From the NCBI GenBank assembly GCA_016124335.1, contig WGNX01000009.1, forward strand, positions 101,658-165,657: a DNA stretch of 64,000 bases, read 5' to 3'. The position numbers and the translations under genes were made by a program. Below, piece after piece: positions 5,210 through 57,033 of this stretch. Under the pieces are notes generated by a model. The model had not been told where the DNA came from. It did no database searches and was given only the letters and a program-made list of their open reading frames with translations. Positions within the stretch are counted from its first letter, which is position 1; every line of letters starts with the position of its first letter. This DNA comes from Alphaproteobacteria bacterium (GTDB lineage: Bacteria > Pseudomonadota > Alphaproteobacteria > CACIAM-22H2).

Positions 5210-5213
<4 letters not shown>
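3993..5213 (+). CDS. hutI: Imidazolonepropionase
   Basis: Amidohydrolase metal ligands DCHTHLVY and KLHADQL, 406 aa; its stop overlaps the hutU start (ATGA). Confidence 0.9.
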
Positions 5214-6874
<1,661 letters not shown>

Positions 6875-13154: not shown

Positions 13155-13165
13155 AGGAGATCAAC

Positions 13166-16010: not shown

Positions 16011-16924
16011 GCGAGCCCCCCTATCCGCGCGATCTTGTCGGCTACGGCCGGAACCGGCCTGACCCGCGCTGGCCCGGCCGGGCGCGCCTCGCGCTCAATT
16101 TCGTCCTCAACTACGAGGAAGGCTCGGAATATTCGATCCCCGATGGCGACGGCGCGTCGGAAACCCAGTTGCTTGAGGCGACGCCGTCGATGCCGCCCGG
16201 CGTGCGCGACATGAATGCGGAATCGATCTACGAATACGGCAGCCGCGTCGGTTTCTGGCGGCTCATCGACATTCTCGGCGAATTCGGCGCGACCGCGACG
16301 GTCTTCGGCTGCGCGCTGGCGCTCGAGCGAAATCCGCAGGCGGCCGCCGCGATCAAGGCCGCCGGCTTCGACGTTTGCAGTCACGGATGGCGATGGATCA
16401 AGCACTGGCTGTTGAAGCCCGAGGAGGAAGCCGAGCACATCAGGCGTGCGGTCGCCTCGCTTTCAAAGAGCTTCGGCGAGCGGCCGCTGGGCTGGTATTG
16501 CCGCACGGGCCCGAGCGTCAACACGCGCAAGCTCGTCGTGGAAGAAGGTGGCTTCCTTTATGACAGCGACTCCTACGCCGACGAGCTTCCCTACTGGGAC
16601 ACAAGCCACGGCCGGCCGCATCTCGTCATCCCCTATTCGGTCGACACGAACGACACGAAATTCGCGAACCCCGCCGGCTTCGGCAACGGCGACGAATTCT
16701 TCGCCTATCTCAAGGACAGTTTCGACTGCCTTTACCGCGAGGGTGCAAGACACCCGGGCATGATGTCGGTCGGCCTGCATATGCGCCTCGCCGGCAGGCC
16801 GGGGCGCGCCGAAGCTTTCCGCCGCTTTCTGGACTACGTGAAGCGACACGACGGCGTCTGGATCTGCCGACGCGCCGACATTGCCCGCCACTGGATCGCG
16901 ACGCATCCCTGCAAGCCCACGTGA
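16007..16924 (+). CDS. Polysaccharide deacetylase-family cyclic-amide hydrolase, allantoinase PuuE-like
   Basis: MSEPPYPRDLVGYGRNRPDPRWPG...LNFVLNYEEGSE is the PuuE-type N-terminus; 305 aa. The track ORF 15605..16924 is a frame fusion. Confidence 0.75.
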   Translation: MSEPPYPRDLVGYGRNRPDPRWPGRARLALNFVLNYEEGSEYSIPDGDGASETQLLEATPSMPPGVRDMNAESIYEYGSRVGFWRLIDILGEFGATATVFGCALALERNPQAAAAIKAAGFDVCSHGWRWIKHWLLKPEEEAEHIRRAVASLSKSFGERPLGWYCRTGPSVNTRKLVVEEGGFLYDSDSYADELPYWDTSHGRPHLVIPYSVDTNDTKFANPAGFGNGDEFFAYLKDSFDCLYREGARHPGMMSVGLHMRLAGRPGRAEAFRRFLDYVKRHDGVWICRRADIARHWIATHPCKPT

Positions 16925-41524: not shown

Positions 41525-41938
41525 ATGGAAAAAGTTCGAATCACCGCCGGGCCGTATGTTTTCGGCGGCCGTTTCGAGACGGCCGCGGCACCGGCAACCT
41601 GCTCGGTCTTCCGCAGCCTGCTGCCGTACCGCAACAAGATCATCCATGTCCGCTGGAGCGGCGAGGCCTGCTGGATCCCGCTCGGCGAGCACGATTTCGG
41701 TCTGCCGTTCGAAAACCAGACGAGCTACCCAGCACCCGGGCAGATCATCGTCTACCCCGGCGGCATCAGCGAAACCGAAATCCTTTTCGCCTATGGCGGC
41801 GTTCGCTTCGCCAGCAAGGTCGGCCAGCTTGCCGGCAACCATTTCATCACGCTGACCGAAGGGCTCGAGAACCTCCCCGCCCTCGGCAAGATGGTGCTGT
41901 GGAAAGGCGCGCAGGATTTCGCGATCGAGGCGGTGTAG
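41525..41938 (+). CDS. Hypothetical protein, possibly DUF3830/cyclophilin-like
   Basis: 137 aa; family recognition only. Confidence 0.35.
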   Translation: MEKVRITAGPYVFGGRFETAAAPATCSVFRSLLPYRNKIIHVRWSGEACWIPLGEHDFGLPFENQTSYPAPGQIIVYPGGISETEILFAYGGVRFASKVGQLAGNHFITLTEGLENLPALGKMVLWKGAQDFAIEAV

Positions 41939-41948
41939 CCTCGGGCGG

Positions 41949-42551
41949 ATGATCGACCGCCTCATCCTGCCTTTCCAGAAGCGCATCCTCGCACCGCCGG
42001 CCGCAGCGTTGGCGCAAATCGGCGTTTCCGCCAACGCGGTGACCCTGACCGGCTTCGCGATAGGCCTTGCCGCCGTTCCGGCGATCGCGGACGGACACAC
42101 GCTTCTGGGTCTCGGCGCGATCCTCGCCAATCGCGTGCTCGACGGACTTGACGGGGCGGTCGCGCGCATCGCCGGACCGACCGCGCGCGGTGCCTTCCTC
42201 GACATCGCGCTCGACTTCTTTTTTTATGCCTGCGTGCCGCTTGCCTTCGCGCTCGCGGACCCTGCCGCAAACGCGCTTTCCGCCTGCGCGCTGGTCGTCG
42301 CGTTCGTGGGAACCGGCAGCAGCTTTCTCGCCTTCGCGGCAATTGCCGCACACGACCCGCAAGGCGCACAGGAACCGGACAAAGGCATCCGCTATCTCGG
42401 CGGCCTTACGGAAGGTGCGGAGACGATCGCCTTTTTTGTGGCCATCTGCATCTGGCCGGCGCAGTTCGCGATCCTCGCGTGGATATACGCGGCGGCATGC
42501 GCGCTGACGACGCTTTCGCGTTGGGTCGCCGGCTGGCGGACCTTCCGCTAA
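41949..42551 (+). CDS. CDP-alcohol phosphatidyltransferase family protein
   Basis: DGxxAR...G...D...D motif: DGLDGAVARIAGPTARGAFLDIALD. Confidence 0.75.
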   Translation: MIDRLILPFQKRILAPPAAALAQIGVSANAVTLTGFAIGLAAVPAIADGHTLLGLGAILANRVLDGLDGAVARIAGPTARGAFLDIALDFFFYACVPLAFALADPAANALSACALVVAFVGTGSSFLAFAAIAAHDPQGAQEPDKGIRYLGGLTEGAETIAFFVAICIWPAQFAILAWIYAAACALTTLSRWVAGWRTFR

Positions 42552-43663
42552 CGTGCGGTGGCTTTCGCCAACTCCAGGAGTGGCCCGGCATTCAACCCGT
42601 CGAGCAGCGAGAAGTGATTGGCGCCCGCAAGTTGGAGCGGCGCCGGCGCACCCCACGCACGCGCGATCGCGTCGGACTGCCATTTGAACTGCGCGCTCTC
42701 CAATGCGCCCAGCGCCACGCCGATGCGCCCGGCACGGCATTTCTGGCGGATCGGCGACAGGGCATCGATATCCGCTTCACATTTCAGGCCGACGATCCGG
42801 CCCATCGGCATGTGCGTGAACGGCGTCAGGTCGAACAGGCCGGACAGCAGCAGCGCCGAGCGGATCGGCGGGCCGTCTTCGCGCCCCGCGACCATCGCGG
42901 CCAGATGCCCGCCGGCCGAATGACCCGAGACGTGCAGCGATGATGCATCGATGCCGAGCGATTCGCCCGATCGCGCGATGAAATCGACGCAGGTGTAGAT
43001 CTGCGAGACGATCCTTTCGAGCGGCGCTTCGGGCGCAAGCGCATAGTCCACATTTGCCACCGCATAGCCCGCATCGAGCATGCCTTGCATGAACTGCCCG
43101 TGCTGCTCCTTGCCCGAGGCCTGCCAATAGCCGCCGTGGATGAAAATCCACACGGGCGGACGGCGGGCACCCGTCGGGCGGTAAAGATCGAATGTCTCGT
43201 CGGCACTGGCGCCGTAGGAAATGTCGGTCGCGGGATGGTTCTTGCGCCATGCCGTGCCATCCGCCGTCCATTGATCGAACAGCACGCGCATCGACGGCAC
43301 CTGATTGCGGGGGCTGTATTCGCGCATGAGTTCGGCGCGCGAAAGCCCCTGCCAGACGGGCGTCGGGTCGGGCGCATGCCCGCGGACCGCTTCGATCTCG
43401 ACCGATACGCCGTCGCCAGCGACGACCTTTATCGGCGGGCGCGTGCCACCGAAGGTCTCGCGGTAGGCGCGGTCGATCGGACGTCGCGCCAGTGAAAGGG
43501 CGGCCGGCTCCGGGCCGCAAACAGTGATCGCACGCATGTCGCCGGGCCCGCAGCCGGCGCGCGCAAGTTCGCCTGCCGCCGCGGTCAATGCCTGCGCGAA
43601 CGCGGCCACGGCGTCCGGCTTTGCCGAGGCGCCACGCGCCCGAATGGACTCAGATACCGACAT
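42548..43663 (-). CDS. Alpha/beta hydrolase (esterase/arylformamidase-like) with an unusual roughly 110-aa N-terminal extension
   Basis: Oxyanion HGGYW and nucleophile elbow GHSAGG. The extension ends ...IKVVAGDGVSVEIEAV, which resembles the RidA/YjgF C-terminus. The first ATG at 43756 would overlap livF by 107 nt. Confidence 0.7.
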   Translation of the reverse strand: MSVSESIRARGASAKPDAVAAFAQALTAAAGELARAGCGPGDMRAITVCGPEPAALSLARRPIDRAYRETFGGTRPPIKVVAGDGVSVEIEAVRGHAPDPTPVWQGLSRAELMREYSPRNQVPSMRVLFDQWTADGTAWRKNHPATDISYGASADETFDLYRPTGARRPPVWIFIHGGYWQASGKEQHGQFMQGMLDAGYAVANVDYALAPEAPLERIVSQIYTCVDFIARSGESLGIDASSLHVSGHSAGGHLAAMVAGREDGPPIRSALLLSGLFDLTPFTHMPMGRIVGLKCEADIDALSPIRQKCRAGRIGVALGALESAQFKWQSDAIARAWGAPAPLQLAGANHFSLLDGLNAGPLLELAKATAR

Positions 43664-44354
43664 AGCGATGCACCACCTCCGCGTCGCGGTCGAGATCGGC
43701 GCCGGTGCCCGACCAGACGGTCCGGCCCTTCTCGATCGCATAGTGCCGATCGGCAAGCCGCCGGAGCACTTTCAGATTCTTGTCGACGATCAGGATCGAC
43801 TGGCCTTCGGCCTTGAGCGTCTCGATGCAGCGCCAGATCTCCGCACGGATGACGGGCGCAAGCCCTTCGGTCGCTTCGTCGAGAATCAGGAGTTCGGGAT
43901 TGGTCATCAAGGCCCGGCCGACCGCGAGCATCTGTTGTTCACCGCCCGAAAGCGTTGCCGCCGCCTGCCCGAAGCGCTCGCTGAGGCGCGGGAACAGCGC
44001 GCAGACCCGGTCGAGGGTCCACGGATTTTTGCGCCCGAGCCGGTTGGCGGATGTGGCGACAAGGTTCTCGCGCACCGTAAGCGTCGGGAAAACCTGCCGG
44101 CCCTCCGGCACCAGGCCGATGCCCAGCCGCGCCACGGCTTCCGGCGCACGCCCGAGGATGGGCGTGCCGGCAAACTCCGCCGTACCGCCGACCGCTCGCG
44201 TAAGCCCCATGATCGTGCGGATCGTCGTCGTCTTGCCCATGCCGTTGCGGCCAAGCAGCGTGACGACCTCTCCCCGATCGATCGACAGGTCGATTCCAAA
44301 CAGCACCTGACTGTCGCCGTAGGACGCCGCGAGGTTCGAAACGCGCAGCATCAC
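43650..44354 (-). CDS. livF: Branched-chain amino acid ABC transporter ATP-binding protein
   Basis: GRNGMGKTT, LSGGEQQMLAVGRAL, LLILDEATEGL. Confidence 0.9.
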   Translation of the reverse strand: MMLRVSNLAASYGDSQVLFGIDLSIDRGEVVTLLGRNGMGKTTTIRTIMGLTRAVGGTAEFAGTPILGRAPEAVARLGIGLVPEGRQVFPTLTVRENLVATSANRLGRKNPWTLDRVCALFPRLSERFGQAAATLSGGEQQMLAVGRALMTNPELLILDEATEGLAPVIRAEIWRCIETLKAEGQSILIVDKNLKVLRRLADRHYAIEKGRTVWSGTGADLDRDAEVVHRYVGI

Positions 44355-45103
44355 GCGTCCCCCTCGCCCAGATAGGCGATACGCACGGCCGGATCGGCCT
44401 GGATTTCCGCCACCGAGCCCGAGGCGATCGCGCGCCCGCCGACCAGAACCGAAATGCGATCGGCGAGCGAGAAAACGGCATCCATATCGTGCTCGACCAG
44501 CAACAGCGCGAACTGTCCCTTGAGCGATTGCAGGAGTTCGACCATCTGCGCGCTTTCGGCGGCCCCGAGCCCCGCCATCGGCTCGTCGAGCAGCAGCAGC
44601 CGCGGTTTCATGGCGAGTGCCACGGCAAGTTCGAGCTGCTTGCGCTCGCCGTGCGACAGGGCTGCGACCGGCCTGTCCGCACGCGTCGCCAAGCCGAAAC
44701 GCGACAGGATTTCCCGCGCCGGGCCGGTCAGGCGTTCGTCGGCACGCGCGTCGCCGATGAAACGGAAGCTGTGGCCCGCATTCGCCTGAACGGCAAGCGC
44801 CACATGTTCGAGCGCCGTGTAGCTACCCATCAGCTGCACGATCTGGAAGGTGCGCGCGAGCCCCATGCGCACGCGCGCGTGCACGGGCAGGCCCACGATA
44901 TCGGTGCCGTCGAGCAGGATGCGCCCGCCGTCGGGATGAAGTTCGCCGGTAAGCTGGTTGATGACCGTCGTCTTGCCCGCACCGTTGGGCCCGATCAGCG
45001 CATGGACTTCGCCTTCGGCGACGTCGAGCGACAGGCAATCGGTTGCCGTCAGGCCGCCGAAGCGCTTCACAAGCCCGTCGATGCGCAGGAGCGGCGCCTT
45101 CAC
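44351..45103 (-). CDS. livG: Branched-chain amino acid ABC transporter ATP-binding protein
   Basis: GPNGAGKTT, LSHGERKQLELAVAL. GTG start overlaps the livM stop; the track ORF 44351..45367 over-extends. Confidence 0.85.
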   Translation of the reverse strand: MKAPLLRIDGLVKRFGGLTATDCLSLDVAEGEVHALIGPNGAGKTTVINQLTGELHPDGGRILLDGTDIVGLPVHARVRMGLARTFQIVQLMGSYTALEHVALAVQANAGHSFRFIGDARADERLTGPAREILSRFGLATRADRPVAALSHGERKQLELAVALAMKPRLLLLDEPMAGLGAAESAQMVELLQSLKGQFALLLVEHDMDAVFSLADRISVLVGGRAIASGSVAEIQADPAVRIAYLGEGDA

Positions 45104-46095
45104 CGGTTGCGCCCCGAAAACAGCGCCACGAGCCCCGAAAGCCCGCCGCGGAAAAACAGGATGATCAGGATCAGGATCGGTCCGAGAAAGAACTGCCAGC
45201 GTTCGGTCCAAGCACTCAGCACGGTTTCCAGCGTGATGAGCCCTGCCGCCCCGAACAGGGGGCCGAACAGCGTGCCCGCCCCGCCGAGAATGACCATGAC
45301 CATGAGTTCGCCCGACTTCGTCCAGTGCATCATGTCGGGGCTGACGAAGCGCGCGTAATTGGCCCACAATCCGCCCGCAAGTCCCGCCCCCATGCCCGCG
45401 AGCACGAAGGCGGCAAGCTTGTAGCGGTAGACGCCGATGCCGATCGCCGCCACGCGCCGGTCGTTCTGGCGGATGGCCCCCAGCACCATGCCGAAGCGCG
45501 AGCCCGCGATCCGCCAGATGAACGCGAAGTAGGCCGCGGCCAGCGCGAGCACGACGAAATAGAAGGTCTTCGCATCGCGCATGTCGAGGCCGAAAAGCAC
45601 GTTTCGCCGGCGCACCACAAGGCCGTCGTCGCCGCCGTAGTACTTGAGCGAGACGAAGAGGAAATAGAGCATCTGAGCGAAGGCGAGCGTGATCATGATG
45701 AACTGCACGCCGGTCGTGCGCAGCGCAAGCGCGCCGATGACGAGTGCCGCGAGACCGCCAAGGACGATCGCGACGGGCATTGCGATCAGGAACTGCTCGG
45801 TGCCGAGCATCATGCCGAACAGCGGTTCGGACAGGCGCGCATGCTGGAACAGGATGCCGACGGCGTAGCCGCCGATCCCGTAGAACGCCGCATGGCCGAA
45901 GCTGATCATGCCGCCGAAGCCGAGCACGAGATTGAGGCTCGCCGCAGCGATCGCATAGATCAGCATGCGCGTGACGAGCGAGGTTGTCGCCGGCACGTCA
46001 AGCAGGTCGGCCGCGAACGGCAGGGCGAGCAGAAAGACGAGAAGCCCGCCGATCGCGAGCGCCGCGCGCGCGCCTGTGGCTTGGGGGGGCGACAT
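45100..46095 (-). CDS. livM: Branched-chain amino acid ABC transporter permease
   Basis: MSPPQATGARAALAIGGLLVF... , 331 aa. The track ORF 45100..47475 is a frame fusion. Confidence 0.85.
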   Translation of the reverse strand: MSPPQATGARAALAIGGLLVFLLALPFAADLLDVPATTSLVTRMLIYAIAAASLNLVLGFGGMISFGHAAFYGIGGYAVGILFQHARLSEPLFGMMLGTEQFLIAMPVAIVLGGLAALVIGALALRTTGVQFIMITLAFAQMLYFLFVSLKYYGGDDGLVVRRRNVLFGLDMRDAKTFYFVVLALAAAYFAFIWRIAGSRFGMVLGAIRQNDRRVAAIGIGVYRYKLAAFVLAGMGAGLAGGLWANYARFVSPDMMHWTKSGELMVMVILGGAGTLFGPLFGAAGLITLETVLSAWTERWQFFLGPILILIILFFRGGLSGLVALFSGRNR

Positions 46096-46100
46096 CCGCC

Positions 46101-47021
46101 TCAGCCCCGCGCCGGAAAAAGGCCTTGCGGCCGCACGAGCAGGACAACGGCCATCAGCAGATAGACGCCCATTGAAGCGAGGCCGGCGGATAGCGCGTCG
46201 GCCTCCGATCCGTTGGCAAGGAGGCCGCGCATGATGTGCGGCATGAACGCGCGCATCATCGTGTCGAAGACGCCGACGAGGATCGCCCCGAAGAGCGCGC
46301 CGCGGATCGAGCCCACCCCGCCGACGACGACGACCACGAACGTCATGATCAGGATCTGCTCGCCCATGCCGACCTGAACGGAAAGCAGCGGGCCCGCCAT
46401 GACGCCCGCAAAGCCCGCAAGCAGCGCACCCAGCCCGAAGACAAGCGTATAGAGGAGGCGGATATTGACGCCGAGAGCACGCACGGTCTCGCGGTGCGTG
46501 GCACCCGCGCGGATCAGCATTCCCAGGCGCGTGTGCTGGATAAGCACGTAAAGGCCGGCTGCCAGCGAGAGCCCGACCGCGATGATCGCAAGCCGGTAGA
46601 CCGAGAAGGCGAGGCCGGGAACGATCTCGATCGATCCCGACAGCAGGGCCGGGATCGCGACGAAGAGCGGCTGCCGGCCGAAGAGGATCGAAACGGTCTC
46701 GTTGAAGAAAAGCACGAGACCATAGGTGGCAAGGACCTGGTCGAGATGGTCGCGTTCGTAGAGCCGCCGGATCACGATGAATTCGACCGCCACGCCGCTC
46801 GCGGCCGCGGCAAGAAGGCCAGCCGGCACGGCAAGGAGGAAGGAACCGGTGGCCGAGGCGGCGAGCGCGCCCGCGTAGGCGCCGATCATGTAGAGCGAGC
46901 CATGGGCGAGATTGATGATGCCCATGATGCCGAAGATGAGCGTGAGGCCGGCCGCCAGAAGAAACAGCGTTACGCCGAGCTGCAGGCCGTTCAGGATCTG
47001 CTCGATGACGAGAAGCGACAT
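46101..47021 (-). CDS. livH: Branched-chain amino acid ABC transporter permease
   Basis: MSLLVIEQILNGLQLGVTLFLLAAGLTLIFG is the canonical LivH N-terminus. Confidence 0.85.
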   Translation of the reverse strand: MSLLVIEQILNGLQLGVTLFLLAAGLTLIFGIMGIINLAHGSLYMIGAYAGALAASATGSFLLAVPAGLLAAAASGVAVEFIVIRRLYERDHLDQVLATYGLVLFFNETVSILFGRQPLFVAIPALLSGSIEIVPGLAFSVYRLAIIAVGLSLAAGLYVLIQHTRLGMLIRAGATHRETVRALGVNIRLLYTLVFGLGALLAGFAGVMAGPLLSVQVGMGEQILIMTFVVVVVGGVGSIRGALFGAILVGVFDTMMRAFMPHIMRGLLANGSEADALSAGLASMGVYLLMAVVLLVRPQGLFPARG

Positions 47022-47042
47022 TTGGCTTGAAAGCCGGCCGGG

Positions 47043-47093
47043 CCGGAAGTGCCGGTGCGCCAACCGCCAGAGCGGCCGCGCACCGGCTTCCGG
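47043..47093 (-). other. Long GC stem-loop in the livK-livH intergenic region (CCGGAAGTGCCGGTGCGC ... GCGCACCGGCTTCCGG)
   Basis: Read directly from the sequence; this is the usual place for a partial terminator that lets the binding-protein message accumulate above the permease message. Confidence 0.45.
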
Positions 47094-47102
47094 GATACCG
47101 GC

Positions 47103-48278
47103 TTACAGCTTGCAGAGACCCGAGTACGCGTCGCCGTGCGCGGTGAGGACCTTGCGCTGCGTCTTGATCTCGGGTTGGCCGGCCGCGCTCTTGACGACCT
47201 TCAGGGCGTACCAGTCCTGGATCGGGTGCTGGTTCGGCCCGAACTTGAAGGCACCGCGCACCGAGGCGAAGTCCGCCTTCAGCATCGCCGGCCGGAACGC
47301 CGCCTGGCCGACGTCGCCCTTCGTCTGGCGAAGGGCAGCCGCGATGGCGAGCGCGGTATCGTAGCCTTGCGAGGCATAGTAGGTCGGCGTGCGGTTGAAC
47401 TTCGCCATGAACGCCGGCACGAACTTCTTGTTCGCCGCGTTGTCGAAATCGACGTTCCAGTGCGAGGAAACCCACAGACCCAGCGCCACGTCGCCGACAG
47501 CCTTCAGCGTCGTGTGGTCGAGCGAGGGCGAGGCAACCGCCATCGGAACCTTGTCGATGAGGCCGGCCTGCGCGTACTGGCGCAGGAACGCGATGCCGAG
47601 CCCGCCCGGATGGAACTGGAAGACGACTTCCGGGTTCGCCGCGCGGATCGCCGCCATCTCGGCGGAATAGTCGGTTTGGTCAAGGCGCGTGTACTGCTCG
47701 CCGATGATCTTGCCGCCGAACATGCGCTTGAAGCCGGCGAGCGCGTCCTGCCCGGCCTGATAGTTCGGCGCGAGGATGAAGGCGGTCTTGTAGCCGAGTT
47801 CCTTCGCCATCTGGCCGGCGGATTCGTGCAGGCTGTCGTTCTGCCACGACACGACATAGTAGTTCTTGTGGCATTCCTTGCCGGCGAAATTCGACGGCGC
47901 GGCGTTGGGCGAAACGTAGGTCGCATCGGCGTCGAGGATGTCGGGCAGCGTGGCACCCAGGATGTTCGAGAACACGATGCCCGTGAGCAGCTTGATCTTG
48001 TCGTTCTTGATCATGCGCTCGGCGATCGACTTGCCCTGACCGGGCTTGAAACCGTCGTCGTCGACGACGACTTCGACCGGGACGCCGCCCAGCTTTCCGC
48101 CTTCCATTTCGACGGCGAGATTGAACGCATCACGGATGTCCGCACCCAGATAGCCGCCAGGGCCCGAGAGCGTCGTGATCAGGCCGATGCGCAGCGGGGT
48201 CTGCGCGTGCAGGATCGACGGGGCGGCGAGCGTGGCGACACCGGCACCGGCGACGGTCAGAAAAGTCCTTCTCTTCAT
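47103..48278 (-). CDS. livK: Branched-chain amino acid ABC transporter substrate-binding protein
   Basis: Leader MKRRTFLTVAGAGVATLAAPSILHA; 391 aa, Peripla_BP_6 type. Confidence 0.85.
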   Translation of the reverse strand: MKRRTFLTVAGAGVATLAAPSILHAQTPLRIGLITTLSGPGGYLGADIRDAFNLAVEMEGGKLGGVPVEVVVDDDGFKPGQGKSIAERMIKNDKIKLLTGIVFSNILGATLPDILDADATYVSPNAAPSNFAGKECHKNYYVVSWQNDSLHESAGQMAKELGYKTAFILAPNYQAGQDALAGFKRMFGGKIIGEQYTRLDQTDYSAEMAAIRAANPEVVFQFHPGGLGIAFLRQYAQAGLIDKVPMAVASPSLDHTTLKAVGDVALGLWVSSHWNVDFDNAANKKFVPAFMAKFNRTPTYYASQGYDTALAIAAALRQTKGDVGQAAFRPAMLKADFASVRGAFKFGPNQHPIQDWYALKVVKSAAGQPEIKTQRKVLTAHGDAYSGLCKL

Positions 48279-48367: not shown

Positions 48368-48925
48368 TCAGATTTTGACCCACCCCGGCGGCGGTTCCTT
48401 TCCAGGGTGGACCGTTCCGCAATGCGGGCAGGTGCGCGCCTTCGCATCGGCGTAGAAGGCGTCGTAAAGCGGCGGCAGGTCCGTCACGATATTCTTCACC
48501 TCGACCTCGACGCGATGGACCAAGGTCGAGCAGGAAAAACAATACCATTCGAACCCGTCGCGGTCGCCCGGCCGCCGGGCGCCCTCGACGACAAGACCGA
48601 CCGATCCGGGGACCGGGCGCTGCGGCGAGTGGCGCGTGTGCGGCGGCAGCATGAAGACGTCGCCCTCGCGGATCGGCAGGTCGTAGATCTTCCCGCGGTC
48701 GGCGATCTTCAGGATCATGTCGCCCTTGATCTGAAAGAAGAATTCCTCGGCCGGATCGTCGTGGAAATCGACACGCGAATTGGGCCCGCCCACGACCATC
48801 GCGATCAGGCCGGTATCGGTGAACAGCATCTTGTTCCCGACCGGCGGCTTCAGCAGCGCGCGGTTTTCCTCGACCCATTTCTGGAAATTGAACGGCTTGG
48901 CGAACGGCAGTTCGGTGGGCGACAT
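48368..48925 (-). CDS. nbaC: 3-hydroxyanthranilate 3,4-dioxygenase
   Basis: 185-aa cupin with HDDPAEEFFFQIKGDM...PPHTRHSPQR and the C-terminal rubredoxin-like CFSC...CPHCG pair. The track ORF 48368..49627 is mostly out-of-gene extension. Confidence 0.8.
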   Translation of the reverse strand: MSPTELPFAKPFNFQKWVEENRALLKPPVGNKMLFTDTGLIAMVVGGPNSRVDFHDDPAEEFFFQIKGDMILKIADRGKIYDLPIREGDVFMLPPHTRHSPQRPVPGSVGLVVEGARRPGDRDGFEWYCFSCSTLVHRVEVEVKNIVTDLPPLYDAFYADAKARTCPHCGTVHPGKEPPPGWVKI

Positions 48926-48942
48926 GGTGCTTCCCCTTCCCT

Positions 48943-49902
48943 TCAGCGCAGCTTGAGACCGGAACCGGCGATCGCATCCTCGATCGCCTTTTTCTCGGGC
49001 CCCGTCAGGCCGAGCATCGGCGGGCGGACCGCGCCACCAGTCTGCCCCAGACAGTCCTGCCAGAATTTCGCGTGCGCGTGCGGCTTCTCGGCCGGCCTCG
49101 TCCGCTTGAAGGCCTCGCGGACAGGCTCGAGGCTGTCGCGCACGCGCCGTGCGTCGTCGATGCGGCCCGCGAAGGCAAGATCGGTATATTCGCGCATGCG
49201 CCGGTCGGCCGCGGTCTGGAAAAGGAACGGCGGGTTCGAGCACAGATAGACCTGCCACTTCAACTCGACGATGTTGTCGAACCACTCCTCCTCCGATGCC
49301 GTCGAAACGATGAGCCGGTCGCCGGCAAGCCGCGTCAGTTCGGCGTACATCGCGCGCGGCACGGAATACTTGATCGCGACGACATTGGGGATTTCCGCAA
49401 GGCGCGCGCAGAGCTGCGGGCTCATCAGGTAGCCGGAGTCCGGATGGCTCCACAGCGCGATGCCGACATCGACCTGCCGGGCGATGTGACTGTAGTAGGC
49501 CAGCAGCGTTTCGTCCTGCGCCTTCAGGAAATGCAGCACGGGCGCATGGACGACGATGTAGTCCGCCCCGACCTTCTGCGCGTGGCGCGCAAGCTCGATC
49601 ACCGTGTCCATGTTCTGGTCCGAGCACGACATGATTGTCGCGGCACGCCCGCCGACCGCTTCGACCGCAATCTCGAAGCTGCGCTTGCGCTCGGCGATGC
49701 TCATCGCGAAAAACTCGCCTTGCTTGCCGGCGATGAACAGGCCGTCAATGCCGAGCTTGCCGACCCAATGGTCGATATTGCGCGCAAGGCCCGTTTCGTC
49801 CATCGCAAGGTCACCTGCGCGGAAGGGGGTAAGCGCGGCCGCCCAGATACCCTTCATGTTCGTGCGGGCATAGGTCTTTGCCTCGGTTCGGCTGTATTTC
49901 AT
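48943..49902 (-). CDS. Dihydrodipicolinate synthase (DapA/NAL) family pyruvate-dependent lyase-type enzyme
   Basis: 319 aa; GIDGLFIAGKQGEF..., with the Schiff-base lysine region IKYS. Family recognition only. Confidence 0.7.
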   Translation of the reverse strand: MKYSRTEAKTYARTNMKGIWAAALTPFRAGDLAMDETGLARNIDHWVGKLGIDGLFIAGKQGEFFAMSIAERKRSFEIAVEAVGGRAATIMSCSDQNMDTVIELARHAQKVGADYIVVHAPVLHFLKAQDETLLAYYSHIARQVDVGIALWSHPDSGYLMSPQLCARLAEIPNVVAIKYSVPRAMYAELTRLAGDRLIVSTASEEEWFDNIVELKWQVYLCSNPPFLFQTAADRRMREYTDLAFAGRIDDARRVRDSLEPVREAFKRTRPAEKPHAHAKFWQDCLGQTGGAVRPPMLGLTGPEKKAIEDAIAGSGLKLR

Positions 49903-52052
49903 CGGTCATCTCCCCGGTCTTGCATCGCGCGCCAGATCGTCTCGGCGCGAAGCGGAAAATCCAGACACTCGACGCCAAACGGCACCAGCGCATCGAGCAC
50001 GGCATTTGCGATCGCAGCCGGCACGCCGATCGTACCTGCTTCGCCCACGCCCTTTGCGCCAAGGCTGTTCGCGGCGGACGGCGTCGGACACGAGAGGAGC
50101 GTGACCGGCGGAATGTCGCTCGCGCGCGGCACGGCATAGTCCATCAGCGAGCCGGTCAGAAGCTGGCCTTGCGCATCGTAGACGATGCGCTCCATCAGCG
50201 CCTCGCCCAATCCCTGTGCAAGCCCGCCGCGCAGCTGGCCGTCAACGAGCATGGGATTGACGACGACGCCCGCATCGTCAACCCACACGATACGCTCGAT
50301 CGCCGGCACGCCGGTGTCGCGATCGATTTCGACGCTGGCGATGCAGGCCCCGCTCGCCCAGGCTTCTTCGGGGGCCATATAGCGGACCGCGGTCTTGCAA
50401 GCAGGTGCCGCAGCCCAACCGCGGGCCAACGTGCTGCCGGCGATCTCGACAAGGCGCCGGGCCGCTTCGTAGACCGCGCTGCCGCCGATCGCCGTCGAAC
50501 GGCTCGCAAGCGCACCGATGCCGGCAGGTGTGGCGGCCGTATCGCCGTGCACGACGGTCACTGCTTCGGGCGCAACGCCAAGTACGTCGGCTGCAATCTG
50601 CGCGAAGGCGGTCTCGCGACCCTGCCCTTGCGCAGTCGCGCCGGTTGCAAGCGTGAATCGCCCCGCACCGTCATGTGCAAGCGTGGCGCTTTCCGAACCT
50701 TGTCCGCACGGCTCGACATAGAGCGCAATGCCAATGCCGCACACGGCCCCTTCGGCGCGCCGCCGAAGGGCGTGCGCGCGCAGGCGCGGATAGTCGGCCG
50801 TGCGCTGCACCATTTCGAGCAGTTCGGCGAAATCCGAGCGATCGAGGCGGCCGCCCGCGGGAAGATGCTGCGGCAGGTCTGCGGGCGCGTGGGTGTTGGC
50901 GCGGCGAAGCACGATGGGATCGGTGCCAAGCGTGCGTGCGGCCCGTTCGACGAGCCGTTCCATCAGCATCGCCGCTTCCGGCCGTCCGGCGCCGCGATAG
51001 ATGCCCAAGGGTGCACGCATCGACCGGTGGCCGCGCGCACGAAGATGCACGGCATCGATCTTGTAGGGGCCCGGAAGGATGCGCATGGCATTGCGCGCCG
51101 GCACGACCGCCGAATAGGTCAGCCAGTGGCCAAGCTCGGCATCCACTTCGGCGCGAAGAGCGAGAAACCGCCCGTCGGCGGCAAGCGCAAGTTCGCCCGA
51201 CAGTTTTTGCGCGCGCCCGTGCGCGGCAGCCAGAAACTCCTCCGAACGCGTCGCGGTCCATCCGACCGGCCTGTCCAGCCGCATCGCCGCAAGCGCCACG
51301 CCCGCTTCTTCAGGATAGAGCGAAGCCTTGCCGCCGAAAGCACCACCCACATCCGGTGCGACGACGCGGATCGCGGCCTCGTCGAGCCCCAGGATCGCGG
51401 CAATGTCGCTGCGCGCGCGATGCGGCGTCTGGGTCGAAAGCCAGAGCGACAGCGCGCTTTCCCCGGCATGCCAATGTGCGATCGCCGCGCGCGGCTCCAG
51501 CGCCATCGGTGCCACACGCGGATATTCGAGTTCGACCCGCACGACATGCGCGGCCTGCGCGAAAGCGGCATCGACATCGCCGTGCTGCCATTCCTGCGCA
51601 AACGACGGTACGGGCGCGCTTTCCTGAAACGGCTCGCAGTCGACGATGACCGCTTCGGCGGCATCCTGCGCCTGCGCGAGCGTATCGGCGACGACGAGCG
51701 CGATCGGCTGGCCGACCGCCTCGACCCGGTCGCGCGCAAGAATGGGCCAATTCGCGTCAGCGAGCCCGTCAACCAGCGCATTGACGGCAGCCTTGCCGAG
51801 ACCGGCTGTGTCCGCACCCGTCAGGACGAGGCGTACGCCCGGCAGCGAACCTCCCGCGCGCGCATCGACCCGGACGAGCCGCGCCGGCGCCATCACGGCG
51901 CGCACGAAGACCAGATGCAGGCAATCGCGCGGACGGAGATCGGAAACGAAGCGGCCTTTCCCGCGCAACAGCCGGTCGTCCTCGACGCGCGGCAGGCTGG
52001 CGCCCAGCGGCCCCGGCGGCACGTCTTCTTCGCGCGGCGGGCGAAACAGCAT
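49899..52052 (-). CDS. Xanthine dehydrogenase/CoxL-family molybdopterin-binding large subunit (second copy), again without FeS or FAD subunit genes
   Basis: 717 aa; N-terminal LPRVEDDRLLRGKGRFVSDL; 4-nt overlap with the DapA-like gene. Confidence 0.85.
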   Translation of the reverse strand: MLFRPPREEDVPPGPLGASLPRVEDDRLLRGKGRFVSDLRPRDCLHLVFVRAVMAPARLVRVDARAGGSLPGVRLVLTGADTAGLGKAAVNALVDGLADANWPILARDRVEAVGQPIALVVADTLAQAQDAAEAVIVDCEPFQESAPVPSFAQEWQHGDVDAAFAQAAHVVRVELEYPRVAPMALEPRAAIAHWHAGESALSLWLSTQTPHRARSDIAAILGLDEAAIRVVAPDVGGAFGGKASLYPEEAGVALAAMRLDRPVGWTATRSEEFLAAAHGRAQKLSGELALAADGRFLALRAEVDAELGHWLTYSAVVPARNAMRILPGPYKIDAVHLRARGHRSMRAPLGIYRGAGRPEAAMLMERLVERAARTLGTDPIVLRRANTHAPADLPQHLPAGGRLDRSDFAELLEMVQRTADYPRLRAHALRRRAEGAVCGIGIALYVEPCGQGSESATLAHDGAGRFTLATGATAQGQGRETAFAQIAADVLGVAPEAVTVVHGDTAATPAGIGALASRSTAIGGSAVYEAARRLVEIAGSTLARGWAAAPACKTAVRYMAPEEAWASGACIASVEIDRDTGVPAIERIVWVDDAGVVVNPMLVDGQLRGGLAQGLGEALMERIVYDAQGQLLTGSLMDYAVPRASDIPPVTLLSCPTPSAANSLGAKGVGEAGTIGVPAAIANAVLDALVPFGVECLDFPLRAETIWRAMQDRGDDR

Positions 52053-52152
52053 CGGCGGGACGCGCTCCTGTCGCAGGTGACCGGCAGAAGTTTCGGGCCG
52101 TCGCGTTTGAGAAACTAGACGGAATTTTCAAATTGATTGATAGTTTCCAGTT

Positions 52153-53055
52153 ATGAATGTCGACATCCGCCACCTGCGCGCCTTCCTTGCCGTCGCCGAA
52201 ACGGGCGCGTTCCGGCGCGCGGCCGAGCGCCTGCGGATGAGCCAACCCGCACTCTCCGCACAGATCCGCGATCTCGAACGCGCGGTCGGCGTCGTGCTGT
52301 TCGACCGGACGACCCGCCGCGTCGAAATGACCGCCGCAGGCCGCGAGTTCCTGCCGCAGGCGGCCAAGCTGCTCGGCGATCTTGAATCGGCGCTGCGCGG
52401 GCTCACCGATCTTGCCCAGCACCGGCGCGGCCATGTCGCGGTCGCCTGCGCCCCGCTGCTGGCAAGCGTCATGCTACCCCGGCTGATGGCAATGTTCATC
52501 GCCGCACATCCGGGCATCCGCATATCGCTCATCGATGCGCGCACCGACCAGATCGTCGACAAGGTGCGCTCGGGCGAGGCCGATCTGGGCATCGGCACGT
52601 TCGCGGATGCCGAGCCAGATATCGCACGCACGCGGCTCTTCCGCGATTCGCTCTTCGTGTTCGCGCCCATCCGGCCGAATGCACCGCGCCGTCCGGCGAC
52701 GTGGGCCGAGATCGCCGACGAACCGCTGATCGCGCTCACGCGCGAAAGCGGGCTTCGGGCACTCGTCGAAATGGGGTTCGGAACGCTCGGCCGGCCGGCG
52801 CGCCCGGCCTACGAGGTCGCACAGGTGACGACGGCCGTTTCGCTCGTCGAGGCGGGCCTTGGCATCGCCGTGCTGCCTGCCGTTGCCAAGGCGATCGCGC
52901 GCGACCGGCGCGTGACGTTGCGCGCGCTCGCCCAGCCGCGCGTCACGCGCGAGGTCAGCCTCATCGTGGCGAGCGCGCGCACGCCGACGCCGGCCGCACA
53001 GGCCTTTGCGGCGCTCGCGCGCGAAACGGCGGCCGCCTTCGGCGAGCGGGCCTGA
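52153..53055 (+). CDS. LysR-family transcriptional regulator
   Basis: HTH IRHLRAFLAVAETGAFRRAAERLRMSQPALSAQIRDLE; divergent from the Mo-subunit operon. Confidence 0.9.
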   Translation: MNVDIRHLRAFLAVAETGAFRRAAERLRMSQPALSAQIRDLERAVGVVLFDRTTRRVEMTAAGREFLPQAAKLLGDLESALRGLTDLAQHRRGHVAVACAPLLASVMLPRLMAMFIAAHPGIRISLIDARTDQIVDKVRSGEADLGIGTFADAEPDIARTRLFRDSLFVFAPIRPNAPRRPATWAEIADEPLIALTRESGLRALVEMGFGTLGRPARPAYEVAQVTTAVSLVEAGLGIAVLPAVAKAIARDRRVTLRALAQPRVTREVSLIVASARTPTPAAQAFAALARETAAAFGERA

Positions 53056-53904: not shown

Positions 53905-53979
53905 TGGTGGGCGCTGCAGGGATTGAACCTGCGACCCCTACCATGTCAAGGTAGTGCTCTCCCGCTGAGCTAAGCGCCC
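53905..53979 (-). tRNA. tRNA-Val (anticodon GAC), with encoded CCA
   Basis: The reverse complement reads GGGCGCTTAGCTCAGCGGGAGAGCACTACCTTGACATGGTAGGGGTCGCAGGTTCAATCCCTGCAGCGCCCACCA, which folds as a cloverleaf with anticodon loop TTGACAT. Confidence 0.85.
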
Positions 53980-54064: not shown

Positions 54065-54958
54065 ATGACCGCCTCGCTTGCCGTTCGCCCCGATCCAACG
54101 CCGCCCTACCGTATCCTCGAGCCCAGCGCCCGGCGCGTGCCGCTGATCTTTTCCTCGCCCCACTCGGGCAGCGACTACCCGGCTGCATTCGTTGCCGGCG
54201 CCCGCCTCGACCCGGTTACGCTGCGCCGCTCCGAGGACGCGTTCGTCGACGAATTGTTCGATTGCGCCCCCGAACATGGGGCTCCGCTCCTGAAGGCGCT
54301 GTTCCCGCGCGCCTATGTCGACGTCAACCGCGAGGCATGGGAACTCGACCCAGCGATGTTCGACGGGCCGCTGCCGGCCTTCGTGAACGCCGCTTCGCCG
54401 CGCGTCGGCGCCGGCCTTGGCACGGTTGCCCGCATCGTCGCGAACGGGGCCGAGATCTACCGCGGGAAGCTTTCTTTCGACGATGCGCGCACGCGCATCG
54501 AGGCGCTTTACATGCCCTATCATGCCGCGCTCGAACGGCTCGTCGCCGACGAGGTCGCGCGCCATGGCCGCTGCCTGCTGGTCGATTGTCATTCGATGCC
54601 GTCCGTCGGAGGCCCGGCCGACCGCGATCCGGGCCGCGCCCGGCTCGACTTCGTGCTCGGCGACTGCTTTGGCGCCGCCTGCGCGCCGATCGTGGCGGAG
54701 ACCGCCGAGGCAAGCCTCAAGCGCATGGGCTATGCGGTGGGCCGCAACGACCCGTACGCCGGCGGCTACATCACCCGCCATTACGGCCAGCCCGCGCGCG
54801 GCCGCCATGCCCTCCAGATCGAGATCAACCGGCAGCTCTACATGGACGAACTCGCCATTTCCCGCAGCGCCGGCTTCCAGCCGCTGCGCACCGCCATCGC
54901 ACGCCTTGTCGCCGACCTCGCGCGCCTCGCGCCCTCGCTGCCGGAAGGCAAGCCATGA
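54065..54958 (+). CDS. hutG: N-formylglutamate amidohydrolase family protein
   Basis: 297 aa; ...IFSSPHSGSDYP... and ...VDCHSMP... conserved blocks. Assigned to the family, not to a demonstrated hut function. Confidence 0.7.
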   Translation: MTASLAVRPDPTPPYRILEPSARRVPLIFSSPHSGSDYPAAFVAGARLDPVTLRRSEDAFVDELFDCAPEHGAPLLKALFPRAYVDVNREAWELDPAMFDGPLPAFVNAASPRVGAGLGTVARIVANGAEIYRGKLSFDDARTRIEALYMPYHAALERLVADEVARHGRCLLVDCHSMPSVGGPADRDPGRARLDFVLGDCFGAACAPIVAETAEASLKRMGYAVGRNDPYAGGYITRHYGQPARGRHALQIEINRQLYMDELAISRSAGFQPLRTAIARLVADLARLAPSLPEGKP

Positions 54959-56707: not shown

Positions 56708-57033
56708 AAGAAATATCCTGCTTCAGAAGGCGAGGCTGGCGCAAAAAGAAAGGGCCGCGCCCGAAGGCACGGCCCAAGTTTAGGGAGGAAACGCCCACGA
56801 AACGGCACAAAGGCCATTTCGAGATGCGACAAGTGAATGTCGCAGTGCACAAATTAGATGTTGCGGCGCAAAAATCAAGAGGGTTTCTCTCCCATTTGGA
56901 GGGATTGACCGGGACCGTGGAATTTTCTCCCGCTAACACATTGATTTGAATGATGGATATTTTTGCAACAGTCGCTGTGTAATTTTCGCGGTGCAGCATA
57001 CAAAAATACAGCCGTAGCAAATGGAGCGACCGC

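Follow-up and report, generated by a model that had tools for sequence, protein, structure and literature searches.

Described systems and the ACMS branch

ACMS, the ring-cleavage product of the tryptophan metabolite 3-hydroxyanthranilate, is a branch point between NAD synthesis, by way of quinolinate, and full oxidation; ACMSD, a drug target, is to our knowledge the only enzyme known to control this branch. The cluster described here shares with the NbaC-NbaD-NbaE-NbaF pathway of Cupriavidus, Pseudomonas fluorescens KU-7 and Burkholderia cenocepacia an NbaC-type 3-hydroxyanthranilate 3,4-dioxygenase (HAAO) with a rubredoxin-like site. Oxidation of an aldehyde, a candidate step in the cluster, is also common to both, as is a RidA-family protein or domain that would deal with the enamine. 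In contrast to the Nba pathway, the cluster has no ACMSD (NbaD) and lacks the 4-oxalocrotonate branch genes; HAAO is adjoined by a DHDPS-fold enzyme; the aldehyde step would fall to an SSADH/KGSADH-like aldehyde dehydrogenase (ALDH) or a molybdenum enzyme instead of an HMSDH-type NbaE; and the unit also includes an arylformamidase-like hydrolase and an ABC importer.

The DHDPS/NAL superfamily, with KdgD, pyrroline-4-hydroxy-2-carboxylate deaminase, NahE and PhdJ, has in common with the DapA-like protein of this cluster the (beta/alpha)8 fold and the Schiff-base lysine. KdgD and the pyrroline deaminase are precedents for decarboxylation and deamination, and NahE and PhdJ are hydratase-aldolases that set the precedent for hydration and retro-aldol cleavage. 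SSADH/KGSADH-like ALDHs partner DHDPS-family dehydratases and deaminases, and the pairing seen for KdgD- and pyrroline deaminase-like enzymes is shared by the DapA-like clusters, whereas the genomic partner that sets the DapA-like protein apart is a ring-cleavage dioxygenase. Aldehyde oxidoreductases of the molybdenum-containing xanthine-oxidase family, such as the glyceraldehyde dehydrogenase of Sulfolobales and PaoABC, share three large-subunit domains, Mo-site motifs and, putatively, the reaction with the CoxL-type protein of the cluster; the latter differs in scoring below curated cutoffs, in lacking an adjacent FeS or FAD subunit gene, and in being about 60 residues shorter.

Human ASPDH has been identified as a 2-aminomuconate reductase and the bacterial 2-aminomuconate deaminase as a member of the RidA family, while prokaryotic ASPDH is treated as an enzyme of NAD biosynthesis (bioRxiv 10.64898/2026.06.05.730449). 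Both families, AspDH-like and RidA-fold, are genomically tied to HAAO in bacterial clusters. The classical N-x-H histidine is present in 42 of 42 AspDH-like proteins from the bacterial clusters, whereas the human histidine is shifted; of the two families, the window contains only the RidA-fold domain, which is fused to a hydrolase. A literature search found no paper describing this cluster.

Organization of the locus

The window, the whole 64,000-nucleotide stretch of DNA analysed, contains the following features:

52153-53055, plus strand: LysR-type regulator, divergent from the operon (Pfam HTH_1 and LysR_substrate)
52053-52152, no strand: divergent intergenic control region, 100 bp
49899-52052, minus strand: CoxL-type molybdopterin-binding subunit, 717 aa (Pfam, NCBIfam)
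48943-49902, minus strand: DapA-like protein with a DHDPS fold, member of a separate, conserved subfamily, 319 aa (PF00701)
48368-48925, minus strand: HAAO/NbaC-type 3-hydroxyanthranilate 3,4-dioxygenase, 185 aa (PF06052)
47103-48278, minus strand: Peripla_BP_6 periplasmic solute-binding protein of an ABC importer (Pfam)
46101-47063, minus strand: LivH-type ABC permease (61-75% identity to BPD_transp_2 genes of related loci)
45100-46095, minus strand: LivM-type ABC permease (55-71% identity to BPD_transp_2 genes of related loci)
44351-45103, minus strand: LivG-type ABC ATPase (55-67% identity to ABC_tran/BCA_ABC_TP_C genes of related loci)
43650-44354, minus strand: LivF-type ABC ATPase (66-76% identity to ABC_tran genes of related loci)
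42548-43663, minus strand: fusion of a RidA/YjgF-fold domain and an arylformamidase-like alpha/beta-hydrolase, 371 aa, last gene of the operon

The original prediction grouped the CoxL-type, DapA-family and HAAO genes into a compact operon under a divergent LysR gene. All four genes were recovered at the predicted positions, and the gene layout agrees with a head-to-tail trio packed for probable co-transcription. The predicted 4-nt overlap is present, as an ATGA shared by the CoxL-type stop and the DapA-like start, but the gap between the DapA-like and HAAO genes is 17 nt, not 18. Nor does the operon end at HAAO: six further tightly packed genes extend it to 42548, and the trio stands at the head of nine minus-strand genes (52052 to 42548) in the order CoxL-type, DapA-like, HAAO, five-gene Liv-type ABC importer and RidA-fold/arylformamidase-like fusion. 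The gaps downstream of HAAO measure, in order, 89, 39, -7, -4, -4 and -14 nt; the GTG start of LivG overlaps the LivM stop, and the start of the fusion overlaps the LivF stop by the 14 nt. A putative ribosome-binding site, GGAAGGGGA, lies upstream of HAAO, and no minus-strand terminator-like site was found in any intergenic gap of the nine-gene operon. The importer, the fusion and the standing of the DapA-like/HAAO pair as conserved core had been overlooked in the original prediction.

An orthologue of the LysR regulator (44-89% identity) is divergently placed in 50 related loci. Comparison of the lysR-upstream regions across loci located a 30-nt block in the control region (52115-52144), ctagacggaattttcaaattgattgatagt, that is kept in the Tagaea-like relatives L007, L002 and L008 and is a candidate LysR box; the control region contains no significant sigma-70 match. 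Overall, we lean modestly toward reading these nine LysR-controlled genes as an operon for the uptake and ACMSD-free degradation of 3-hydroxyanthranilate or a close conjugate.

Searches with tblastn gave no match within the window to an ALDH-family gene or to an AspDH-like gene, the latter counting against the pathway proposed below. Among the subset of window ORFs that was scanned, none was of the Amidohydro_2/ACMSD type, and the sole amidohydrolase-type gene was an Amidohydro_1 gene of the hut type. The earlier statement that ACMSD, aminomuconate-semialdehyde dehydrogenase and deaminase genes are missing agrees with these searches for the first two; for the deaminase it needs qualification, since the last gene of the operon carries an N-terminal domain of the RidA fold, to which that deaminase also belongs.

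The dioxygenase

The small cupin exceeded both NCBIfam equivalog cutoffs for HAAO (NF009763, 260.9 bits vs. 220; TIGR03037, 240.8 vs. 145.95) and matched the solved Cupriavidus enzyme 1YFU with E = 9e-69 and 58-60% identity in the alignment. The iron ligands H55, E61 and H99 align with H51, E57 and H95 of 1YFU, the substrate residues R51, R103 and E114 with R47, R99 and E110, and the C-terminal cysteines C129, C132, C166 and C169 with its four-Cys rubredoxin-like site; in 1YFU the His/Glu/His residues bind the iron and the Arg/Arg/Glu residues bind the carboxylate and the amine of the substrate. Both histidines and the glutamate on which the original prediction had made its assignment depend are kept in this alignment; by every sequence criterion the cupin is a genuine HAAO, so that its product should be ACMS.

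The DapA-like/HAAO pair in related loci

The survey started from the DapA-like protein, for which at least 530 relatives were counted across genome species, and the best 80 loci were examined. Of 83 loci, 78 have HAAO after the DapA-like gene, a count that, like the others given here, comes from related species and is not fully independent. The order LysR<-CoxL-DHDPS-3HAO is seen again in 13 genome loci, in Chelatococcus and in Rhizobiales GAS188; together with the recurring pair, this indicates that the arrangement is not due to chance. The trio does recur as a unit, but the conserved core is the pair of DapA-like protein and HAAO, which is fixed in at least several hundred species. The common set comprises LysR, an ALDH or CoxL-like gene, the DapA-like gene, HAAO, SBP-LivHMGF, an Abh3 hydrolase and an AspDH-like gene; the roughly 80 related loci contain no further conserved family, and no other family occurs in more than nine of them. 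Neither ACMSD nor dehydrogenase families of the HMSDH type recur in the 80 related loci; since ACMSD is missing from the cluster as well, the unusual fate of the ring-cleavage product that had been proposed is a fair reading.

In nineteen loci the pair occurs alone, with no catabolic neighbours, as would be expected if it were biosynthetic and turned scavenged 3-hydroxyanthranilate into quinolinate for NAD, with the DapA-like protein speeding ring closure of ACMS. Cyclisation through an imine makes up the latter half of the DapA reaction, and aspartate dehydrogenase, a frequent member of the cluster, elsewhere serves NAD biosynthesis. Yet in the window and in most loci the pair belongs to a unit under LysR control that also includes an importer and an enzyme for aldehyde oxidation, a layout typical of catabolism, no nadC or other NAD gene is adjacent, and ACMS cyclises spontaneously; a biosynthetic role is highly unlikely. 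Two Povalibacter loci carry ALDH, DapA-like and AspDH genes with no HAAO nearby, which counts against the degradative pathway favoured here.

The DapA-like protein

With 111.8 bits against PF00701, the DapA-like protein clearly belongs to this family, yet it falls under every NCBIfam cutoff, including that of the DapA equivalog TIGR00674 (81.1 vs. 206), and far under those of the NanA, KdgD and HpaI-type models. Its AF2 model (pLDDT 85) matched DHDPS structures in Foldseek with a TM of 0.8, at only 20-26% identity to any solved member of the superfamily. Alignments to 6XGS, 3PB0 and 2YXG place K178, invariant in 14 homologues, at the Schiff-base lysine (E. coli K161); in contrast, the invariant residues W151, K60 (Q61), F125 and S156 stand where DapA has its Tyr/Thr/Tyr relay (Y133/T44/Y107) and R138, which binds ASA. 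Many further Arg, Lys and His residues are invariant. As the triad of known Schiff-base family members is missing, the mechanism may differ from theirs. The DapA-like protein probably replaces ACMSD as the ACMS-processing enzyme; its chemistry could be decarboxylation and deamination, or hydration and retro-aldol cleavage.

The CoxL-type subunit and its replacement by aldehyde dehydrogenase

The CoxL-type protein is made up of Ald_Xan_dh_C (PF01315, hammerhead), MoCoBD_1 (PF02738) and MoCoBD_2 (PF20256) domains. Aligned with 8UEM it keeps the Mo-site motifs GGAFGGK, YRGAGRPE, STQTPH and GVGEAG and lacks a segment of about 60 aa in the second cofactor-binding domain. The best family match was the alpha subunit of Mo-dependent glyceraldehyde dehydrogenase, at 517 against a cutoff of 790, and every curated cutoff was missed. 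The active-site loop of form I CoxL, with its Cu-binding cysteine, reads AYxCSFR. Assignment to form I CoxL (aerobic CO dehydrogenase) was rejected: the protein has YRGAGRPE where 8UEM has YACSFR, and scored 396 against the TIGR02416 cutoff of 991.

Across the related clusters, ten have CoxL only, 39 have ALDH only, none has both and one has neither (Fisher p = 1e-9). The CoxL-like and NAD-dependent ALDH genes share a single slot directly upstream of the DapA-like gene, which the ALDH occupies in 28 loci; CoxL orthologues hold it across Rhodospirillales, Hyphomicrobiales and Rhodobacterales, including those of Chelatococcus and Rhizobiales GAS188 in matching arrangement (50-58% identity). The nearest solved relatives of the cluster ALDH are the SSADH 5VBF and the alpha-ketoglutarate-semialdehyde dehydrogenase 5X5T; against TIGR03216 it scored 296 bits (cutoff 693) and is not of the 2-aminomuconate/2-hydroxymuconate-semialdehyde dehydrogenase type. 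This mutual exclusion in a shared slot makes the Mo enzyme most likely the aldehyde oxidoreductase of the pathway.

As one option, the original prediction had envisaged hydroxylation of quinolinate or picolinate-type products. In this reading ACMS would cyclise to quinolinate or lose a carboxyl group to give picolinate, and the Mo enzyme would attack the N-heterocycle beside the nitrogen, as happens in the breakdown of nicotinate, picolinate or quinolinate. CoxL-type enzymes do include N-heterocycle hydroxylases, and the top solved relatives include quinoline 2-oxidoreductase (1T3Q) and 6-hydroxypseudooxynicotine dehydrogenase (7DQX); however, the exclusivity is perfect and the same slot is held by an NAD-dependent ALDH, which is incapable of hydroxylating a pyridine ring. 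Four-fifths of the related clusters have no Mo enzyme at all; decarboxylase, monooxygenase and ring-cleavage genes of the pic/nic/qui type are absent from the scanned genes of the operon and its flanks and do not recur across related loci. The proposal gives way here to aldehyde oxidation, and hydroxylation of the heterocycle is distinctly unlikely.

Partner subunits are conspicuously missing: no frame of the window contains a Fer2_2 motif indicative of the FeS partner, nor do 11 of 12 CoxL-type loci; a gene for an FeS or FAD partner is lacking from the window and from 12 of 13 related loci, and the called genes of L001, L002, L087 and L088 include neither CoxS (FeS) nor CoxM (FAD). The partner-less state, with its bearing on the electron path, counts against a role of the subunit in the pathway. 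The gene also has atypical codon-position GC and evolves two to three times faster than its neighbours (dN/dS 0.19 vs. 0.06-0.10; 76% vs. 91-92% identity to L007), and these features, with the deletion of about 60 aa, could mark it as a decaying or unrelated passenger, the trio then not forming one pathway. Against this, the 717-aa ORF is intact and joined to the next gene by the ATGA overlap, a dN/dS well under 1 indicates purifying selection, orthologues keep the slot across three orders, and the Mo-site motifs are kept; a passenger gene is hardly credible.

Importer and RidA-fold/hydrolase fusion

The solute-binding protein, whose gene comes after HAAO in 58 loci, has as nearest solved relatives 4EVQ/4EVR, 4EY3 and 4EVS, which we take to be aromatic-acid binders of R. 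palustris. RPA0668 binds benzoate (PMC6079105).

The AF2 model of the N-domain of the fusion (residues 1-115, pLDDT 90; domain approximately 1-105) retrieved only RidA-family structures among the top 50 Foldseek hits (E 2e-5, prob 1.00, TM ~0.6), whereas Pfam, PDB-profile and hhalign comparisons gave no significant RidA match at the sequence level. An invariant R75 in G-x-R-P-P precedes the matching strand; its equivalence to R105, the catalytic Arg of RidA, is our own reading. The hydrolase part belongs to Pfam BD-FAE/Abhydrolase_3, scores below cutoff against NCBIfam HSL-type models, and has homologues named "arylformamidase" by JGI; its translation shows HGGYWQ, which contains the HGGYW oxyanion motif regarded as diagnostic of arylformamidase (Afmid/Bna7-type kynurenine formamidase), and GHSAGGH, which fits a GxSxG nucleophile. 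The arylformamidase-like domain has no evident role after ACMS, and this is counted against the proposed pathway. AspDH-like genes, whose cluster protein exceeds the NF009828 cutoff, occur in 37 of 50 complete related loci.

The fusion suggests consecutive deformylation and deamination, and clusters of the Mesorhizobium type have, in addition, two hydrolases and an FAD monooxygenase, together with a regulator and a binding protein of their own. Both would suit a HAAO homologue that cleaves another o-aminophenol or hydroxy-N-heterocycle to an N-formyl enamine; the formamidase domain would deformylate this product, the fused RidA domain would deaminate it, and the DapA-like protein would cleave the 2-oxo acid so formed. 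This is unlikely in view of the close identity of the dioxygenase to a validated enzyme, its intact R51, R103 and E114 and its two equivalog scores; moreover, the hydrolase is unfused or part of a separate upstream module in many loci.

Proposed pathway and significance

With 3-hydroxyanthranilate as the presumed substrate, every step beyond HAAO is inferred from association. The Liv-type ABC system would take up the aromatic acid, and HAAO would open its ring to ACMS, an unstable enamine aldehyde. In the place of ACMSD, the DapA-like protein may use the conserved K178 to build a Schiff base with C2 of ACMS, or with that of a deaminated or oxidised ACMS. The enzyme could then remove the 3-carboxyl and the nitrogen, in the manner of KdgD and pyrroline-hydroxycarboxylate deaminase; alternatively, it could hydrate its substrate and cleave C3-C4 as NahE-type enzymes do, yielding an oxaloacetate or iminoaspartate unit and a C3 aldehyde. 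Oxidation of the pathway aldehyde to the acid would fall to the CoxL-type Mo protein here and, in four-fifths of related clusters, to an SSADH/KGSADH-like dehydrogenase, and the RidA-fold domain may hydrolyse an enamine or imine intermediate, a part that the AspDH-like reductase could play in many relatives.

In its full form the proposal is tentative, a real possibility that we rate somewhat below even: the DapA-like protein would be an unrecognised, cofactor-independent lysine Schiff-base enzyme for ACMS, defining an ACMSD-independent route shared by several hundred or more alphaproteobacterial species, a route in which a partner-less CoxL-type protein can replace an NAD-dependent ALDH and RidA-fold and AspDH-like proteins handle the enamine. 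A second, unrelated enzyme at the ACMS branch would be useful to enzymologists, and a family at present labelled only "dihydrodipicolinate synthase family protein" would have its annotation corrected. Orphan CoxL-like genes are numerous in soil Alphaproteobacteria and often mislabelled as CO dehydrogenase; the exchange of ALDH and Mo enzyme is a clean natural experiment that would give one of them a role. Finally, the 2026 report on human ASPDH is directly concerned by these bacterial clusters, in which AspDH-like and RidA-fold proteins are linked to HAAO time and again; if the proposal is true, the AspDH family would be tied to tryptophan catabolism in bacteria too, independently of the human case just described.

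Gene order and control region

The three genes and the divergent LysR gene of the original prediction were confirmed as open reading frames with the expected domains. The trio is closely packed as predicted, but it is not a compact three-gene operon, as the same-strand unit continues for six genes past the 3-hydroxyanthranilate dioxygenase (HAAO):

52153-53055, plus strand: LysR gene, divergent, 100 bp from the operon
49899-52052, minus strand: CoxL-like gene (717 aa; Ald_Xan_dh_C, MoCoBD_1 and MoCoBD_2 domains)
48943-49902, minus strand: DapA-like gene (319 aa; DHDPS domain)
48368-48925, minus strand: HAAO gene (185 aa; 3-HAO domain)
47103-48278, minus strand: binding protein gene (Peripla_BP_6)
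46101-47063 and 45100-46095, minus strand: two ABC permease genes
44351-45103 and 43650-44354, minus strand: two ABC ATPase genes
42548-43663, minus strand: hydrolase gene, the last of the operon (371 aa)

An ATGA is common to the CoxL-like stop and the DapA-like start; the DapA-like/HAAO gap, which contains a good ribosome-binding site, measures 17 nt, one fewer than originally counted. Downstream of HAAO the gaps are 89, 39, -7, -4, -4 and -14 nt, and at the 3' end of the operon the last stop is overlapped by a convergent CDP-alcohol phosphatidyltransferase gene. No minus-strand terminator-like site was found in any intergenic gap, promoter and terminator scans performed no better than on shuffled sequence, and an Rfam scan of the operon recovered neither a riboswitch nor a leader. 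Directly upstream of lysR lies a 30-nt AT-rich block (52115-52144), ctagacggaattttcaaattgattgatagt, which is nearly identical in one Tagaea-like relative (L007) and largely conserved in two others (L002, L008), with synonymous sites approximately saturated; this block, with its ATC-N9-GAA element, is a candidate LysR box.

Elsewhere in the window, histidine-utilization-type genes are split over 50 kb between an Amidohydro_1 gene (3993-5213, plus strand), adjoining an apparent urocanase read by eye at about 5200-6874, and an N-formylglutamate amidohydrolase gene (54065-54958, plus strand) just past the operon's LysR. A tRNA gene (53908-53979, minus strand) and a match to the alphaproteobacterial mmgR/suhB sRNA (56738-56821, minus strand; RF00519, 53 bits against a cutoff of 41) were also located. 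The annotated genes at 13118-15528 and 41525-41938 (both plus strand) include 2OG-Fe(II) oxygenase, MmgE/PrpD-family and DUF3830 proteins, and a polysaccharide-deacetylase-like protein is encoded at 15605-16924; no link of these genes to the operon was apparent.

The dioxygenase and the DapA-like protein

The small cupin scores above two curated equivalog cutoffs for HAAO, and its alignment with the Cupriavidus metallidurans enzyme (1YFU; E = 9e-69) covers the full length. In this alignment H55, E61 and H99 match the iron ligands, R51, R103 and E114 the substrate-binding residues, and four cysteines the second metal site. Loss of the iron ligands, the originally stated ground for rejection, is thereby excluded, and judged by these residues the protein is a genuine HAAO, as originally proposed.

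The DapA-like protein contains the Schiff-base lysine (K178), and AF2 predicts a DHDPS fold for it (pLDDT 85; TM score 0.8); its identity to any solved structure is only 20-26%, and its scores for DapA, NanA, KdgD and HpaI-type aldolases are all far short of the curated cutoffs. The positions of the DapA triad and of the aspartate-semialdehyde-binding arginine are occupied by W151, K60/Q61, F125 and S156, invariant in 14 homologs, and on these grounds together the protein is not DapA. The subfamily is tightly conserved (72-92% identity among the best 120 database matches), and relatives are encoded in at least 530 of 600 pattern-matched stretches from one-genome-per-species contigs; among the matches listed, the closest come from a Rhodospirillales MAG (92% identity) and from Tagaea (84-90%). 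NCBI assigns one 86% identical protein (P0006) to the cyanobacterium Halotia wernerae; since all other close matches are alphaproteobacterial, it is probably a contamination of that assembly. Database sources provide only generic names for the proteins of this cluster, and no published account of a HAAO/DHDPS-like cluster was found, although work in subscription journals may exist.

Related loci

The comparison was anchored on the DapA-like protein and covered the best 80 of at least 530 genome loci with 10-kb flanks, together with contigs from the protein collection; the loci were mapped with the window proteins and Pfam-annotated neighbors. DapA-like and HAAO genes form a fixed pair, in this order, in 78 of 83 loci; of the five exceptions, two are contig ends, two come from Povalibacter and one from Paenochrobactrum. 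The type I loci, about three-quarters of the total, have in common a divergent LysR, an NAD aldehyde dehydrogenase (ALDH) or CoxL-like gene, the pair, a five-gene ABC importer, an Abhydrolase_3 gene and an aspartate-dehydrogenase-like (AspDH-like) gene. The 19 type II loci, mostly from Xanthobacteraceae and uncultured Alphaproteobacteria, have only the pair in common, embedded among unrelated genes (for example in L063, L034, L059, L069 and L084); their neighbors (GGDEF, cysteine synthase, YkuD, two TctC receptors, M24 peptidase, enolase-superfamily and AMP-ligase genes) gave no clue to a pathway. These isolated pairs match a biosynthetic role, in which the pair would speed up the formation of quinolinate; the importer and ALDH context of the other loci does not, and this explanation is unlikely. 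An FAD_binding_2 flavoprotein upstream in type II loci was considered as a NadB-like stand-in for AspDH, an idea that was dropped because the protein falls far below all cutoffs and is generically fumarate-reductase-like.

Clustering of all remaining open reading frames recovered no further conserved family in more than nine loci, and no genes for ACMS decarboxylase (ACMSD, the usual enzyme after HAAO) or for the 4-oxalocrotonate branch among the related loci, extending the originally noted absence of ACMSD beyond the window. Upstream of the DapA-like gene, Mesorhizobium, Aminobacter and Nitratireductor have an additional divergent module (L003, 6026-9972; also L020, L021, L031, L048, L072, L078 and others). 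It encodes another LysR and another binding protein, together with an FAD_binding_3 monooxygenase resembling HpxO/3-hydroxybenzoate-6-hydroxylase, Abhydrolase_1 and Abhydrolase_3, and it may supply 3-hydroxyanthranilate. A vitamin-B6-type reading of the Mesorhizobium module (MHPC oxygenase/AAMS hydrolase) found no specific NCBIfam match.

The two loci of the gammaproteobacterium Povalibacter (L061, 3195-6400; L076, 8401-11769) carry a compact trio of ALDH, DapA-like and AspDH-like genes, with no HAAO within 10 kb. In Paenochrobactrum gallinarii (L036, 10001-12000) binding-protein genes directly follow the DapA-like gene; no HAAO was detectable, and the remaining cluster is present.

The molybdenum protein

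Of the 50 type I loci whose flanks are complete, 39 have only the ALDH, 10 only the CoxL-like gene, none has both and one has neither (Fisher p = 1e-9). In 28 loci the ALDH gene directly precedes the DapA-like gene, in the slot taken elsewhere by the CoxL-like gene, which lies 0-33 nt from its DapA-like neighbor. Clusters of the CoxL type are found in Rhodospirillales, Hyphomicrobiales and Rhodobacterales, and CoxL matches of 50-58% identity in Chelatococcus and Rhizobiales GAS188 show the same arrangement. The simplest reading of this swap is a non-orthologous displacement, in which the molybdenum protein would perform the aldehyde-to-acid step. The hydroxylation of quinolinate- or picolinate-type products, as originally suggested, is disfavored because an ALDH replaces the molybdenum enzyme, which points to aldehyde oxidation.

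The best family match of the CoxL-like protein, below cutoff, is the alpha subunit of molybdenum-dependent glyceraldehyde dehydrogenase; the protein retains the motifs GGAFGGK, STQTPH, YRGAGRPE and GVGEAG and is without the cysteine loop of CO dehydrogenase. Partner genes of the CoxS/CoxM type (FeS, FAD) were found neither in the window nor beside 12 of 13 orthologs, and a six-frame search for the Fer2_2 motif retrieved nothing in the window and one distant match in the related locus L051. A decaying gene is contradicted by purifying selection (dN/dS 0.19; its neighbors evolve more slowly, at 0.06-0.10) and by conserved synteny. Its dN/dS is 2-3 times that of the rest of the operon, and its codon-position GC is atypical (GC1 0.78; GC3 0.755, against 0.82-0.88 for GC3 in its neighbors).

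A second CoxL-type large subunit (9755-12109, plus strand; 784 aa), 38% identical to the first, likewise scores best, at 558 bits and below cutoff, against glyceraldehyde dehydrogenase alpha; its neighbors are an AstE/aspartoacylase-like gene (8506-9570, minus strand) and an ABC ATPase gene, with no CoxS/CoxM beside it.

The terminal RidA-fold/hydrolase fusion

In the last gene product, the C-terminal two-thirds form a hydrolase of the Abhydrolase_3/BD-FAE type that carries HGGYW and GHSAG motifs, and many homologs are labeled arylformamidase by JGI. The N-terminal approximately 105 residues, for which database sources offer no name, had no significant sequence match (Pfam at E<=10, PDB profile search), nor did hhalign against an E. 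coli RidA sequence give a significant result. AF2 models this domain (pLDDT 90) in the order beta-alpha-beta-alpha-beta-beta; its top 50 Foldseek matches are all RidA/YjgF/UK114 proteins (E 2e-5, TM approximately 0.6); in its predicted structure the domain has a RidA fold. The two domains are likewise fused in 18 Bosea-type loci, but not in Mesorhizobium-type loci. The RidA family includes bacterial 2-aminomuconate deaminase (bioRxiv 10.64898/2026.06.05.730449), and the view that no such deaminase is present needs to be qualified because the modeled domain shares that family's fold. A formamidase-RidA fusion would also be explained by a dioxygenase with a different substrate and an N-formyl enamine product, but this conflicts with the intact 3-hydroxyanthranilate-binding residues of HAAO.

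A candidate pathway

The nearest solved relatives of the importer's binding protein are 4EVQ, 4EY3 and 4EVS, R. palustris binders of benzoate derivatives; RPA0668 binds benzoate (PMC6079105). The importer would take up 3-hydroxyanthranilate or a conjugate, from which HAAO would make ACMS; the DapA-like enzyme would process ACMS in the place of ACMSD, the molybdenum enzyme would oxidize a pathway aldehyde, and the RidA-fold domain (in other genomes the AspDH-like protein) would handle an enamine or imine.

Two versions of the central step fit. The DapA-like enzyme could be a Schiff-base decarboxylase/deaminase, with the remainder mirroring the known lower kynurenine pathway, where, after a semialdehyde dehydrogenase, either a RidA-type deaminase or an ASPDH-type reductase would act; human ASPDH was reported as such a reductase in June 2026 (bioRxiv 10.64898/2026.06.05.730449), and this version is favored by a simple gap-filling logic. 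Alternatively, it could be a hydratase-aldolase that cuts C3-C4 to yield an oxaloacetate/iminoaspartate unit and a C3 aldehyde, with accessory enzymes acting on both; this version is favored in that the pair alone is universal, further catabolic genes are never present, and the cluster ALDH is SSADH/KGSADH-like, not HMSDH-like. The histidine position of the AspDH-like proteins, tried as a discriminator, is compatible with either version; all 42 carry the classical N-x-H histidine. By either route, the operon probably encodes the meta-cleavage catabolism of 3-hydroxyanthranilate, in a variant with one probably new enzyme function.
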